A stretch of DNA of 64,000 nt, from IMG/VR virus record IMGVR_UViG_3300035182_002389, positions 32,001 through 96,000 of that record; one strand, 5' to 3'. Source of the DNA: a virus. Taxonomy: Duplodnaviria; Caudoviricetes. The notes under the pieces were generated by a model. The model saw only the letters and a program-made list of their open reading frames with translations, did no database searches and was not told the origin of the DNA. The position numbers and the translations under genes are program-made. Below, piece after piece: positions 6,673 through 23,180 of the stretch (positions are counted from its first letter, which is position 1; the number at the start of each line of letters is the position of its first letter).

Positions 6673-6730
6673 GGCGTGAGATGACGCGACAACCGCGTCT
6701 ACGGGCAGGCGGCAGGAAAGGCGGGTGGCG

Positions 6731-8781
6731 ATGCTGAGTCGAATCACAGCGCAGCGCAAAAGGCGCTGTTTTATGGTCTACGACATGGAGTGGATCCCGG
6801 GCCAGTTGGAGGTCCGTCTCCTCGGCCTGTACGACGGCGACCGATACCGCGCGTTCCACAAGGTCGACGACTTCCTCAACGCGGTGCTGGTGCGTGAGAA
6901 CGCGGACAAATGGCTCTACGCCCACTACGGCGGCATGGCCGACGCGCAGTTCCTCCTCCAGCGCCTCGCCTCGCGCGCGGACGAGGGCTTTCAGATCGAC
7001 GCGTCCTTCTCGGGCTCGTCGGCCATCATCATCCACGTCACGCGCGGCGAGCTGAGCTGGCACTTCATCGACAGCTTCTGGCTGCTGCGCGATCGGCTCT
7101 CGAAGATCGGCGAAGCGGTCGGCCTCGAAAAGATGGGCGAAGAGTACGCCTGCGACAACTTCCCGAACTGCGGACACGTCGACAGCAACGAGATGAAGTA
7201 TCTCGATCCCTGCTCGTGCACGCACTCCTATGGAGCGCACGACAAGCAGCCGGGCACCAAGGACCTCGCGTGCCTCGCGTGCGGGTGCAGGAAATACGAC
7301 GGCGATCACCCCTACGCGATGTGCGTCTTCTGGGCGCCGATCGCCGAGCTGACGACGTACAACGAACGCGACTGCGTCATCTTGTACAAGGCCATCGAGC
7401 GCTTCGAGCAGACGCTGCTCGATCTCGGCGGCCAGCTCCAGATGACGATTGCCTCGTGCGCGATGCACCTCTTTCGTCGCAAGTACCTCCAAGACGACAT
7501 TCGCACCGTCGCCGCCGTCAACGGGTGGGCTCGAAAGGCCTACACGTCTTCACGCGTGGAGGTGTTCCAGACCCACTGTGAGAACGCTCACTATTTTGAC
7601 CTGAACTCGTCTTTTCCGTTCGCGATGACATTTGACTGTCCTGGCAACGTGAAGAAGATGCGCGCGAAGAAGCTGCCTCCCTACGGCAGCATCTACATCG
7701 CCGAGTGCGAGATCATCGTGCCCGAGATGTACCTGCCGCCGCTGCCGTTCCGGCACGACGGGCGCGTCTTCTTCCCGACGGGCACGTGGACGAGCTGGTT
7801 CTCGAACATCGACCTGGAGCTGCTTCAGAAGCGCGGCGGACGAATCGTGAAGGTGATTCAGTCCATCGAGTTCGAGAAGCAATCCTCTCTTCGCGAGTAC
7901 GCGATCGACATCTATGCAAAGAGAAAAGCCGCGACGACGAGCTACGAAAAGCTCATCCTCAAGTATCTGTTGAATAGCCTTGGGGGCGGGATGCGGATGG
8001 CGCCCTTGGCCGCATCCCGAGCCCCCTCTGGCGCCCATAGGAACTCTACGGAAAGTTCGGCGAGCGCACCGAGAAGACCTCGATGCTGCTCCATCCAACG
8101 TCGACCGACTGTCCTCACACGCCGAAGCATCGGTGCGACAGTTGGCCCATCTGCCCGCACGCCATCGAAGGCGTCGAGTGCAACCTCTGCATCCAGATGC
8201 TGTTCCCTGGGTGTTTGCTCGTCACCAACGAGGTCGAGCTGGCGCACGAGTGGGTGCCCATCGCGGTCCACATCACGGCCACCGCCCGCAAGAACCTCGA
8301 AGGTCACCTCTGGAATGCGCAGGAGGACATCTACTACTGCGACACCGACAGCGTCATCACGACCGTGCAGCTCCCGAGCGATCCGACCACCCTCGGCGCG
8401 CTCAAGCTCGAAGACGAGATCCGTAAGGGCGAGTTCATCGCCTGCAAAATCTACGCGGTCGAAGTCATCGACGAGAAGACTGGCCACGGTCACTGGAAGA
8501 CCAAAGCAAAAGGCTTCTCCAAGATGAACTACAGCAAGTTCGTCGACGTGAAGCTCGGCAACGACATCAAGCTCGCGCGCATGACGCGCATCCGCGAGCT
8601 GTATCGAAAGGGCAAGATCGTCCCCGAGGAGAACATCGTCGCCAAACGCCTCGTGCAGAAGTGCATGGCGAAGCGCTGCATGCTCCCGTCGGGACAAAGC
8701 CGCCCTTGGACGATCGAGGAAATCCAGAGAAACCGCATGGATCTCGGCATCGACATCGATCCCATGATCCTGTCGGATTGA
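6731..8781 (+). CDS. polB: Family B DNA polymerase of protein-primed type, split by a 65-nt insert (segments 6731-7981 and 8047-8781)
   Basis: Exo YDME / HFIDSFWLL / YNERDC; motif A YFDLNSSFPFAM; motif B KYLLNS+LYGKFG across the break; motif C YCDTDS; KAKG. Confidence 0.9.
7982..8046 (+). other. 65-nt structured intervening sequence in polymerase motif B
   Basis: Removal restores the frame and NSLYGKFG; perfect 10-bp stem 7987-7996/8010-8019 plus G5/C5. Confidence 0.85.
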
Positions 8782-19396: not shown

Positions 19397-19425
19397 TTGA
19401 CAACTCATGTACGTTGTGCGATCCT
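19397..19425 (+). promoter_or_regulatory. Promoter P1
   Basis: TTGACA-N17-GATCCT; spacer ends in TACGTTGTGC. Confidence 0.7.
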
Positions 19426-19438
19426 CACGTCTGACTCC

Positions 19439-21148
19439 ATGAAGAAACCGAACGCGGGAAGCGAAAAGAACGCGCCGTTGGCGCGAGCACGCGCTTCGCG
19501 CGAGGACGCTCCTGCGGAGCGAGGACGCTCCTTTGGAGCGAGCGGCGAGAAGCAAAAGTACGTCGCGGGGCGCCCCGTGCGGGTCGGCGACAGGTTCGGC
19601 GAGCTGACCGTCACCGAGCAGATCGAAGCGCCCGACCACAAGACCTACCAAGGTCGGCACTGGCTCTGCACGTGCGACTGCGGCAACCCTGCGATTCGCA
19701 CGACCACGACGCTTCAGCAAGCGCTCGCAAAAGGGCACGTCTCTTCCTGCCGAGAGTGCTGGCTGGAGCTGCTCCGATCGCGCACGGCGGAGACGTTCGA
19801 CCAGGAACGAACCAAGACGCGCACCGCGCTCGCATCGCTGTGGGCGCAGCATCGAACGCTCTACAGCGTCGCCTACGACGCGCGCGAAGAAGAACGGATT
19901 CGAGACGCCATCGAAGAGGACGGGATCCCGATCCGGTCGGAGGAGTCGCTCTCCGAGCAGTACGCCGTCGAGCCCTCACTGCTGAACGTCGACGCTCCCT
20001 CGTCGGCGGAGACGACCACGGCCCCGGTGCAGCGCGCCGCGTACCTCTATCCCGTCGGAGGCGGCGAGCTTTGCTGGGCGTGCATCACGTGTGGCGAGAC
20101 CTTTTCGCGAGGGTTCGGGTGCACGCTCTGCATCGAGCCCGTCTGCATGGACTGCGTGAGGAGCGAGGCGCACGTCCACACCGAAGACGAAGACGGCCTG
20201 ATGCTGCATCAGATTGCGGCGGAGTTCGATCGGAGCCGCGAGCGCGTCCGGCAGATGGAGACGCAGGGTCTCACCAAGCTGCGTCACCTCCACATGGCTT
20301 CACTCGTCAGGACCCTCGGGGCGGACTACGTGAGCGTGCACGCGTTTCTTCGCGCCTTGCACCCCGAGCTTCTCGACGTCGGCGAGATGCTTGCTGTGCT
20401 CGACTGGCGCGAGCGCATGGCGCGCGAAGCGAAGGTCGCCGCGTACAGGGCCGCAGAGGAGGCGGCCGAGAGGGCCGCAGAAACGCGGAGGATCATCGAA
20501 GAGCGTCGCCAGGCCAAGCGTGAAGAAGAACAGCGTCGCCGGGCCGAGCTTGCTGCCCAACCCGAGGAAGTGAGGGCGCTTCGTATTCAGCGCAACCTCG
20601 CGCGTCGTGAGACGGAGACGACGCGGCTGGCGAACGATCTCGCAGCCTGGCACGCGAACCTCGAAGCGTTGCGTGCGAGCGAGCCCGAACGAGATCGGCG
20701 CGCGGCCGAGGCGAAGAGCGCGCTCGAACTCGAACGCATCGAGAACGAGAAGAGGCGCAGCGCCGAGGTGATGGAAGAGGCCCGTAAGACCCTCGCCACG
20801 ACCTCCGCCGTCTTCGTCCCGAGCAAGCTCAGGGTCGCCGCGCGCAAGCAAGACCTCCTCGCGATCCTCATGCTCCCCGTCGGCGAGTTCGATTTCAGCG
20901 AGGAGGTGCGAGGCGCACTCGTCGAGGCCGGCGCCGAGTACATCGGCGATCTTCTCTGCGAGCTGTCGTGCCCGCCTTCGCGATGGGTCGGACCTCTGCT
21001 CGGCGCGGAGGTGCTGTTCGCGTTGCGAGAGGTCGGCCTCAACTTCGGCGTCAACATCTACGCGCTCACGGGCAGGAAAGGCTCGGAGCTGCCGTTCGCG
21101 ACCCCGTTCGTCAAGCGGATGGGGAAGGTTTCAACCAAAAAACATTGA
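19439..21148 (+). CDS. Multidomain protein: CDCG zinc domain, sigma70 region-4 HTH, coiled coil, RNA polymerase alpha-CTD-like domain
   Basis: WLCTCDCG; LHQIAAEFDRSRERVRQMETQGLTKLR; LPVGEFDFSEEVRGALVEAGAEYIGDLL. Confidence 0.7.
   Translation: MKKPNAGSEKNAPLARARASREDAPAERGRSFGASGEKQKYVAGRPVRVGDRFGELTVTEQIEAPDHKTYQGRHWLCTCDCGNPAIRTTTTLQQALAKGHVSSCRECWLELLRSRTAETFDQERTKTRTALASLWAQHRTLYSVAYDAREEERIRDAIEEDGIPIRSEESLSEQYAVEPSLLNVDAPSSAETTTAPVQRAAYLYPVGGGELCWACITCGETFSRGFGCTLCIEPVCMDCVRSEAHVHTEDEDGLMLHQIAAEFDRSRERVRQMETQGLTKLRHLHMASLVRTLGADYVSVHAFLRALHPELLDVGEMLAVLDWRERMAREAKVAAYRAAEEAAERAAETRRIIEERRQAKREEEQRRRAELAAQPEEVRALRIQRNLARRETETTRLANDLAAWHANLEALRASEPERDRRAAEAKSALELERIENEKRRSAEVMEEARKTLATTSAVFVPSKLRVAARKQDLLAILMLPVGEFDFSEEVRGALVEAGAEYIGDLLCELSCPPSRWVGPLLGAEVLFALREVGLNFGVNIYALTGRKGSELPFATPFVKRMGKVSTKKH
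19471..19540. repeat. Four-hairpin triloop array, copy 3
   Basis: CGCGCC-GTT-GGCGCG AGCA CGCGC-TTC-GCGCG AGGA CGCTCC-TGC-GGAGCG AGGA CGCTCC-TTT-GGAGCG. Confidence 0.9.
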
Positions 21149-22172: not shown

Positions 22173-23180
22173 ATGCGCCTTGGATGGATCACCGACCCCC
22201 ACATGAACTTCGTGAGCACGCTCGACTGGTGGCGCGAGCTGCTCAAAGAGGGCGACGACGCCTACCTCATCACGGGCGACATCGCGGAGGCCTCGTCCAT
22301 CATCCCGTCGCTCCAGGCGCTCGCGGCGGAACTGCCCGCCGGCAAGGTCATCTACTTCGTGCTCGGCAACCACGATTTTTACGGCTCCTCGATGCCGGGC
22401 CGTCCGAGGGCGACCATCGCGGACACGCGCGCGAGGGTCGCACACTTCGCGAAGTACGAGCCGAAGCTCGTCTACCTGCACGACCTCGATCCCTTTGCCA
22501 GCGCGCCGAAGGCGCGCGTTCCCGTTCCCGTTCCCGAATCCCGCGCCGAAGGCGCGTCTCGTCTCCCTGCGCTGGGACGAGACGAAATCGGGAAGGGGGA
22601 ACGCTCGCTGCGCGAGCTGGAAACGGGAACGGGAACGGGAAACGGGTACGTCGAGATCGCTCCGAACACCGCGCTGGTCGGCGTCGACGGCTGGTACGAC
22701 ACGCTCAACGGCGACGTGAAGAGGAGTCGCTGCGGACTCGCGGACTTCCACCTCATCCCGGACATGAACTGCCCGGCGAAGGAGAGGAACGCCCTCTGCC
22801 AGACCCTCACGATGATGGACGCCGTGCGGCTCCAGAAGATGATCGAGAACGCGCTCGGCGACAAGCGCGTCGTCGAGCTGGTCGTCGCGACGCACGTGCC
22901 GCCGTTTTCGGGCGCGGCGTGGCATCTCGGCGAAGTGAGCGACTCCGAGCACCTGCCCTACTTCTCGAACCGCCTCGTCGGCAAAGCCATCGTCGAGTCG
23001 ACCGAAGACTTTCGACAAGCCGGCGGCAAGGTGACGGTGCTGTGCGGCCACTCGCACTCGGAGGGGAAAATCTATCCCCACCACAACCTCAAGGTGCTCA
23101 CCGGCGCGGCCGAATACTACGCGCCGAAGAAGCACATGACGCTCGCGCTCGGCGAGCTTGTCCGTTCGGAGAACTGGTGA
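22173..23180 (+). CDS. Calcineurin-like metallophosphoesterase with an in-frame repeat insertion
   Basis: ITDPH, ITGDI, LGNHDFY, THVPP, CGHSH; preceded by (GAGGAA)4. Confidence 0.85.
   Translation: MRLGWITDPHMNFVSTLDWWRELLKEGDDAYLITGDIAEASSIIPSLQALAAELPAGKVIYFVLGNHDFYGSSMPGRPRATIADTRARVAHFAKYEPKLVYLHDLDPFASAPKARVPVPVPESRAEGASRLPALGRDEIGKGERSLRELETGTGTGNGYVEIAPNTALVGVDGWYDTLNGDVKRSRCGLADFHLIPDMNCPAKERNALCQTLTMMDAVRLQKMIENALGDKRVVELVVATHVPPFSGAAWHLGEVSDSEHLPYFSNRLVGKAIVESTEDFRQAGGKVTVLCGHSHSEGKIYPHHNLKVLTGAAEYYAPKKHMTLALGELVRSENW
22497..22648. repeat. Composite palindromic (GTTCCC)n...(GGGAAC)n element
   Basis: Left arm: GAA-loop hairpins in GTTCCC repeats; right arm: TGC-loop hairpin in GGGAAC repeats. 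Confidence 0.85.

Follow-up and report, generated by a model that had tools for sequence, protein, structure and literature searches.

We analyzed a 64,000-nucleotide stretch of DNA (referred to below as the window), comprising bases 32001–96000 of the 202,518-bp IMG/VR record IMGVR_UViG_3300035182_002389, which derives from a large uncultured phage with a GC content of 65%. In this window the gene for a protein-primed family-B DNA polymerase is interrupted, within the codons of its catalytic motif B, by a 65-nt gap that restores an intact motif when it is removed. The gap is real and structured, and has been conserved in distant lineages, where its structure covaries and its flanking codons are kept; together with its homologs it defines a new family of coding gaps at motif B of phage protein-primed polymerases. 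The explanation that we favor, at somewhat better than even confidence and on the strength of sequence comparisons, is that the polymerase may be produced by programmed translational bypass across a gap of 59–65 nt. That the skipping would take place on the ribosome, rather than at the level of the RNA, is something that we infer, as are all of the mechanistic details proposed below.

The upstream frame (6725–7981, plus strand) encodes the 419 N-terminal residues of the polymerase (Pfam PF03175, E 9e-30) and ends in AAG TAT CTG TTG AAT AGC CTT, or KYLLNSL. A different frame takes over at position 8044 with CTC TAC GGA AAG TTC GGC, reading LYGKFGERTEKTS, and stays open until a stop codon at 8779–8781. 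Deletion of 65 nt (7982–8046) joins the two and brings back KYLLNSLYGKFG in polymerase motif B; because a CT repeat is present at both ends, the limits of this deletion can be slid to 7979–8043. The two frames around the gap and the 65-nt deletion had been described in an earlier note made from this DNA alone, and its sequence statements all hold at the coordinates given. Alignments and searches for relatives showed that the restored motif is uninterrupted in about 250 related polymerases, none of which tolerates an insertion within it.

Gene-calling programs divide the polymerase into two open reading frames (ORFs; P0008 and P0122). The region 8041–8083 contains no ATG, GTG or TTG, and thus no start codon past the gap from which the conserved YGKFGE codons could be read; ribosomes must therefore come from upstream, as internal initiation cannot reach YGKFGE. 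Profile searches of the record identified one PF03175 gene only, and no matches to PolA or to a classical PolB. The split gene is thus the sole polymerase found in the genome, and is essential as such.

The insert was recovered repeatedly and independently. L003, a JGI contig, and a contig from an independent run (X4) both contain an identical copy, while a second allele, 97.7% identical overall, is represented by an ENA contig (L002) and by run X5. The insert of this second allele differs by three substitutions, all of which are located in its 3' tail (positions 8027, 8029 and 8036). Every contig of the window lineage, from four runs and three assemblies, contains the insert, and the 65-nt joint was unseen among them (with the proviso that contigs hide rare variants). 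In these runs, polymerases of greater divergence have no insert, and their sequence is joined exactly at 8044/8047. The finding of the insert in L003 and run X4, and again in the L002/X5 allele, led us to reject an assembly error.

Comparison of the window with L002 indicated that strong purifying selection acts on both halves of the gene in their respective frames, with the insert in place. The N-terminal half contains 22 nucleotide differences and no amino acid changes, corresponding to a ratio of non-synonymous to synonymous substitution rates (dN/dS) of 0.013, and the C-terminal half contains 20 nucleotide differences and a single amino acid change (dN/dS of 0.00 and 0.03 for its two parts). 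If the C-terminal half is instead read in the upstream frame, all of its differences become non-synonymous; the five located in 8047–8343, for example, are 5/5 synonymous in the shifted frame and 5/5 non-synonymous in the upstream one. The earlier note had proposed dN/dS below 1 on both halves as a check, to which the observed values of 0.00–0.03 conform, and had left open an assembly error or an inactivating insertion. Both are ruled out by the occurrence of the insert across multiple samples and two closely related alleles, by the purifying selection, and by the distant homologous inserts described below.

Two further features of these alleles were observed. Nineteen of the 22 differences in the N-terminal half cluster within about 100 nt (window 7567–7669), and the roughly 170 nt that flank the insert on each side do not differ between the window and L002; the clustered differences form a mosaic pattern that suggests recombination between strains. 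L002 also bears an intein in motif C (YCD/S...HN/TDS, L002:1437-2226, corresponding to window 8343/8344) that the window lacks, so that the presence of the intein is polymorphic between near-identical viruses. Inteins occupy the same motif C site in P0002-4, P0007, P0012, P0013 and P0017.

Searches with the C-terminal half alone, which pick out the C-terminal ORFs of split genes, together with a search of representatives with the N-terminal half, identified homologous inserts at the same codon in polymerases as little as 40–63% identical. The first of these (L004, from two Logan runs) encodes a polymerase about 61–63% identical over aligned positions and carries a 61-nt insert, in the context AAT AGC CTT ... 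CTC TAC GGA AAG. The second (L130, one contig from another Logan run) is about 46% identical and carries a 59-nt insert, in the context AAT AGC CTT ... CTC TAT GGA AAG. Two more alleles that are represented by protein sequences only (P0211 and P0229) break past KLLLNSL, with inferred inserts of 49 and 50 nt, respectively; their zero-frame read-through (GGAP..., then LRKV or STES) implies an insert that starts with a run of G, and the same peptides are compatible with a CUC ahead of UAC. Both halves of the gene are open and conserved in three lineages that have diverged to 40–63% identity. Inserts of variable length (65, 61 and 59 nt) that recur at this codon with covarying stems, which the earlier note had suggested looking for, are therefore present.

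Pattern scans for additional alleles were less productive. That of viral contigs yielded three chance hairpins only; a loose pattern applied to metagenome contigs matched 120 stretches, and among the 80 loci that were screened there was none that encodes the polymerase; and a related-locus search in viral contigs gave no relatives. Three long-read contigs with scattered frameshifts (L131, L133 and L139) were left out. In a further sequence available as protein only (P0259), homology of the N-terminal ORF ends right past KLLMNALY and is followed by about 90 unrelated residues; this may represent a further type of insert, positioned past the Tyr codon.

The inserts share a common architecture. 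In the window, a hairpin is formed by pairing of G7982–C7987 with G8021–C8026 and of G7988–G7996 with C8010–C8018, with a GA bulge at 8019–8020. Across the inserts, a hairpin of 13–15 bp begins 0–1 nt past the CUU codon, contains a 2–3 nt bulge on its 3' side, and is closed by a loop of 12–14 nt; the spacing from the stem to the CUC codon is 17 nt in the window, 15 nt in L004 and 13 nt in L130. CUU is kept in all four DNA alleles (window, L002, L004 and L130) though it accounts for just 12% of the leucine codons of the genome, and the AAT AGC ahead of it is identical in all four. The hairpin alone has a predicted energy of −30.8 kcal/mol, which is unremarkable for a sequence of 65% GC (z −1.3 to −2.2); what is above chance is that one architecture recurs at this codon among distant relatives.

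When the four DNA alleles are aligned with MAFFT on sequence alone, the otherwise dissimilar insert of L130 falls in register (MAFFT alignment of the hairpin by itself misplaced it). The upper stem changes from GGGAUGC/GCAUCCC in the window to CCCUUGC/GCAAGGG in L130, with four of the seven pairs altered on both sides and 100% of cells paired; this covariation was matched by one of 500 shuffles, and controls in which the alignment was slid were 32–54% paired. Two more double changes convert the lower stem from GGGGG/CCCCC to GCGUG/CACGC in L130, and the top pair changes from G-C to A-U in L004. The covariation draws on just three independent DNA-level insert types. A covariance model (R1) built from the window, L002 and L004 located the L130 insert correctly (19.2 bits, E 0.0013); this score may come largely from the conserved flanks, and we do not count it as independent evidence.

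The loop and the tail of the insert display 6-bp Watson-Crick complementarity in every allele: GGCGCC/GGCGCC in the window type and in L004, and GCCCCC/GGGGGC in L130, where it is kept via two double changes (the chance expectation is 3–10% per allele). The hairpin and the tail hexamer are separated by 3 nt in the window, 2 nt in L004 and 0 nt in L130. Loop-tail pairing is therefore incompatible with the complete hairpin, and can form only with the lower stem open, which might be achieved, for example, by a ribosome standing on CUU. An H-type pseudoknot that coexists with the full hairpin was rejected, a linker of 0–3 nt being too short to span 13–15 bp.

These observations bear on several structural claims of the earlier note. 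The hairpin and the positions of the two GGCGCC hexamers were confirmed. For the pseudoknot proposed between those hexamers, the pairing itself is borne out by covariation, and its coexistence with the complete hairpin is not. The alternative pairing of the insert ends (7978–7984 with 8034–8041) is not conserved. The TAG at 8038 does block the downstream frame in the window as stated, and is not a conserved feature, since the inserts of L004 and L130 have no stop in that frame.

In a polymerase tree of 120 sequences, the three DNA-verified insert lineages are scattered among 117 intact ones, a distribution that requires at least three changes. The nearest relatives of the window, at 67–75% identity, are intact, with the insert precisely absent. 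Insert divergence rises with gene divergence: between the window and L004 the insert is 77% identical (whole-gene nucleotide identity 68%, third-position identity 55–58%), and between the window and L130 it is 52% identical (58% and about 51%, respectively). Recent spread of a mobile element is a poor fit to this scaling, and no homing endonuclease gene is found beside the polymerase among the neighboring ORFs of the window and L004. The pattern fits an old element that may have co-diverged with its host gene and often been precisely lost, or that may have been transferred long ago. A blastn-short search of the 202-kb genome detected no second copy of the 65-mer, and partial matches did not exceed 16 nt. 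Membership in the hairpin-repeat families of the genome, or a translated palindromic repeat (RPE-like), was rejected for an element that is single-copy and never in frame.

Sister lineages contain a different interruption of the same motif, in the form of a 4-nt insert located one codon downstream (UUG UAU U UAU GGR AAA). It was found in ENA contigs from three samples (L134-136) and in a 29.6-kb JGI contig (L138). The insert puts UUA in the A site past UAU, with a matching UAU 4 nt downstream, and L138 contains no other TTA in about 1,300 codons. We regard these loci as candidates for a short hop resembling that of the Streptomyces phage Hau3 terminase, for which UUA-triggered bypass was proposed and is supported by mass spectrometric detection of a junction peptide in E. 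coli (PMC10732093). Since an insert of 4 nt cannot be an intron, recoding at the level of the ribosome is plausible at motif B in this polymerase family.

Table 1. Positions of the polymerase segments, the coding gap and its elements (window coordinates unless a contig is named)
Feature	Position	Strand	Remarks
Polymerase N-terminal segment	6725..7981	+	Exonuclease domain to first half of motif B, ending KYLLNSL; likely start ATG 6773
Proposed take-off codon, CUU (Leu)	7979..7981	+	Ends the upstream frame; kept in all four DNA alleles
65-nt coding gap, outside the polymerase protein	7982..8046	+	Removal restores motif B; homologs of 61 nt in L004 and 59 nt in L130
Hairpin, 6 + 9 bp	7982..8026	+	7982-7996 with 8010-8026; 2-nt 3' bulge 8019-8020; 13-nt loop
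Loop hexamer GGCGCC	7999..8004	+	Complementary to tail hexamer
Tail hexamer GGCGCC	8030..8035	+	3 nt past hairpin
TAG in downstream frame	8038..8040	+	Closes downstream frame inside the gap; absent as a conserved feature from L004 and L130
Proposed landing codon, CUC (Leu)	8044..8046	+	17 nt past hairpin; CTC then TAY GGA AAG in four alleles
Polymerase C-terminal segment	8047..8781	+	YGKFGE, Cys/His-rich insert, motif C (YCDTDS), KAKGFS motif, stop
4-nt motif B insert	L134:549-575, L135, L136; L138:2377-2401		Two diverged lineages from different studies

The earlier note had suggested either a programmed hop from CUU to CUC or excision of the insert from the RNA, and the conserved CUU and CUC flanks and the covarying hairpin support that pair of explanations, of which we favor the first. 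If the gap is bypassed during translation, a ribosome would arrive at CUU (7979–7981) with peptidyl-tRNA-Leu in its P site, where the strong hairpin that starts from the next base would hamper normal decoding; loop-tail pairing, made possible by opening of the lower stem, may add to this block. The weak, wobble-paired contact between CUU and the anticodon would then break, the ribosome would slide across the gap without translating it, and the same tRNA would re-pair with the fully complementary CUC (8044–8046). Translation would restart at UAC, generating ...KYLLNSL-YGKFGE.... Refolding of the hairpin behind the ribosome could end at about the time that CUC enters the P site, since the spacing between the two is 13–17 nt.

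In bacteria, tRNA-Leu(GAG) normally reads both CUU and CUC; the tRNA-Leu set of the host is assumed here from general rules. There are no viral tRNA genes in the window and the genome contains just tRNA-Pro(CGG) and tRNA-Gln(UUG), hence no leucine tRNA is encoded by the virus. The tails of L002 and L130 contain no CUN triplet ahead of the landing codon, and in the window and L004 the only CUY triplet in that region is one that shares the final stem base.

A number of observations weigh against bypass. In two alleles, the window and L004, a CUC overlaps the last base of the stem, and the tail of the window contains a CUG as well; a ribosome that landed on the stem-overlapping CUC of the window would encounter the TAG at 8038. 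The codon past the take-off site is neither a stop nor rare, being GGG in the window (20% of Gly codons; the earlier note had correctly pointed out that no stop follows), UGG in L004 and GCG in L130. The hairpin, at 13–15 bp and about 45 nt, is far too big for the A site, and RNAfold favors a different fold for L130 (−30.4 versus −20.9 kcal/mol). An AGGA resembling a Shine-Dalgarno (SD) sequence is present at 8039–8042 in the window and L002 only, with no equivalent in L004 (GCGAAAG) or L130 (CCCCAACG). The zero frame continues for 182 codons, and failed bypass would yield a long product with a junk tail. A gap of 59–65 nt would be, to our knowledge, the longest bypass in a bacterial system. 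Finally, the virus encodes an RtcB RNA ligase, which keeps a route of RNA cutting and rejoining possible.

That route is the main rival to bypass, and we consider it possible though unlikely: a host or phage endoribonuclease would cut at both CU/Y junctions, and the phage RtcB would rejoin the ends. A full-length RtcB is encoded outside of the window (G000:C1:13768-15174, L140:2769-4175; Pfam 286 bits), and the length variation, conserved structure, conserved junctions and selection described above would fit an intron as well as they fit bypass. The scattered distribution of the inserts, and their precise absence in the 117 relatives listed, also resemble the behavior of introns and inteins. 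Such splicing of mRNA is, however, not known to us from bacteria or their viruses, and phage RtcB is usually explained by tRNA repair. The genome contains no EndA-type endonuclease (no PF01974 match) and the host is bacterial; the inserts display neither a bulge-helix-bulge (BHB) nor twin stem-loops, and the 3' junction is located 13–17 nt outside of the only conserved helix. On these grounds (no BHB, no PF01974 match and a bacterial host) an archaeal BHB intron was rejected.

Rfam searches likewise provided no support for RNA-level excision, matching no ribozyme or intron family (none at E < 0.3 or near its gathering score). Group I and group II introns, which are 200 nt or more in length, and known small ribozymes were rejected for inserts of 59–65 nt that have no Rfam match. 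Splicing would assign no role to a duplicated leucine codon with a U/C wobble, and the 4-nt UAU-U-UAU inserts of the sister lineages cannot be introns. We judge it rather unlikely that the gap is a true viral mRNA intron, cut by a new endoribonuclease at the two CU/Y junctions and sealed by the viral RtcB. With respect to the RtcB gene itself, a MarR-like gene is located nearby, and no recognizable repair partner is adjacent.

The gene might also be inactive, with a dead polymerase complemented by a helper or the host, or might be expressed as two separate polypeptides. Two ORFs are what the gene callers report, and loss of the gene 60 bypass is accompanied in some phages by split topoisomerase subunits. 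This explanation is nevertheless improbable, given dN/dS values of 0.00–0.03 on both halves with the insert present, and halves that remain open and conserved in the three diverged lineages. Two polypeptides would part NSL from YG within a single motif B helix, and the YGKFGE codons are conserved yet lack a preceding start codon; a dead gene would be the only polymerase gene in its genome.

Heterogeneity at the level of DNA would require the insert to be a selfish or immunity-conferring element, with the polymerase produced from a genome subpopulation, or from replication intermediates, that had undergone precise slippage deletion. Flanking CT(T/C) direct repeats combined with a hairpin are a classic substrate for such deletion, and close relatives (67–75% identity) are precisely without the insert. 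All contigs of the lineage, in four runs and three assemblies, nonetheless bear it (rare variants might be hidden by the contigs), and production of an essential replicase from rare revertants alone would be selected against. This scenario also leaves the long-term conservation of the hairpin, loop-tail pairing, CUU and CUC codons and spacing without explanation, and we consider it quite improbable.

Frameshifting, in which the insert would be translated into a loop of roughly 20 residues within motif B, is very improbable. The downstream frame is open across the whole insert in L004 and L130, and the CUU_U of L004 resembles the +1 context of RF2. The insert lengths modulo 3 are 2, 1, 2, 1 and 2 (for 65, 61, 59, 49 and 50 nt), such that L004 needs a +1 shift and the window and L130 a −1 shift, and the reading frame of corresponding insert nucleotides would change from allele to allele. 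In the window and L002 a −1/+2 shift is needed, but TAG 8038 shuts the target frame until 8041 and there is no slippery sequence in 8039–8046. The differing lengths and the TAG together exclude simple frameshifting as a common mechanism, and none of the roughly 250 intact relatives tolerates an insertion in motif B. Transcriptional slippage at the G5 or C5 runs was rejected, as the resulting frame meets the same TAG.

The record also encodes ThyX, a UvrD-type helicase and a sigma-70 region 4 protein, the last of which indicates that the host is bacterial. The nearest cultured relatives of the polymerase are found in tectiviruses (Bam35/AP50), Methanosarcina spherical virus and autolykiviruses, at 23–28% identity. 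Elsewhere in the window, positions 19397–21148 (+) encode a 583-aa protein that combines an HNH-endonuclease-like N-terminal region (PHROG 374, residues 63–149) with sigma-70 region 4 (residues 266–297), and positions 22173–23180 (+) encode a metallophosphoesterase, for which the best Pfam match (PF00149) spans residues 1–78 only.

Long-range bypass is known experimentally from essentially T4 gene 60, short UUA-triggered hops in a Streptomyces phage, and yeast mitochondria. If translational bypass is indeed responsible for expression of the polymerase described here, it would constitute an independent family, situated in a catalytic motif of the only replicase that a group of large, uncultured, GC-rich and tectivirus-like phages possesses. 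The available natural variants (gaps of 65, 61 and 59 nt, inferred gaps of 50 and 49 nt, the 4-nt form, the covarying stems and the loop-tail pairing) make tests straightforward. They could probe which features of gene 60 are general, such as matched wobble codons, structure at the take-off site and refolding of the mRNA as a driver, and which are dispensable, such as the stop codon, the compact A-site hairpin, the SD-like element and a nascent-peptide signal. For annotation, gene callers split such polymerases into two ORFs with junk tails. If RNA splicing were instead to prove true, it would represent the first protein-dependent mRNA splicing (of the tRNA or XBP1 style) in the bacterial world, and a new role for phage RtcB.

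Among known systems, splicing by an endonuclease together with RtcB, as in archaeal BHB introns (for example that of cbf5) and in Ire1/XBP1, likewise acts on a small, frame-shifting insert in mRNA, and RtcB is encoded by the virus; the inserts described here differ in that they contain no BHB or twin stem-loops, and in that the virus has no EndA and a bacterial host. We know of no bacterial precedent for mRNA splicing of that type. The byps elements of Magnusiomyces capitatus mitochondria are reportedly present in dozens of copies at many sites, followed by stop or unassigned codons. They are described as GC-rich hairpins of tens of nucleotides that have matching or near-matching flanking triplets, features that they share with the present inserts, and that are bypassed in translation; they differ from the window element, which is single-copy, is found always at one codon of one gene, and belongs to a bacterial virus. 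The Hau3 terminase (10-nt bypasses; Smith et al. 2013; PMC10732093) is similarly an essential gene of a GC-rich phage that is broken by short frame-disrupting blocks, positioned within conserved junctions. The 4-nt loci (L134-136 and L138) share with it a UAU, a UUA in the A site and a UAU 4 nt downstream, here in motif B, while the window gap is six times longer, is hairpin-based and has no UUA.

T4 gene 60 offers both parallels and differences. Homologs of gene 60 have no premature landing triplets, and their take-off and landing codons include pairs that differ by a U/C wobble (Manning and Atkins, bioRxiv 10.1101/2022.08.31.505936). For gene 60, with its 50-nt gap and its homologs in MobA cassettes (Manning and Atkins 2022 preprint; Wills et al. 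2024 preprint), pairing of the exiting mRNA has been proposed to drive forward movement up to the landing site. The two systems differ in many particulars: there is no sequence homology between them, with a protein-primed polymerase here and a topoisomerase there; the gap is 59–65 nt (49–50 nt in the two protein-inferred alleles) rather than 50 nt; and the hairpin is 13–15 bp in length rather than a compact A-site stem-loop. In the present system no stop or rare codon is located past the take-off site, no homing endonuclease gene is adjacent, the SD-like element is not conserved, and the divergence of the insert follows that of its host gene, unlike the pattern of recent spread. In both systems, however, an untranslated gap interrupts an invariant motif in an enzyme that is essential for replication, a stem-loop is located right past the take-off codon, and relatives that have no gap lack it precisely. 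The take-off and landing codons can in both cases be read by one tRNA (with U/C wobble pairs in some gene 60 homologs), and in both, pairing within the mRNA could drive forward movement. We believe that this coding gap probably works like that of gene 60; by descent it is not a member of the gene 60 cassette.

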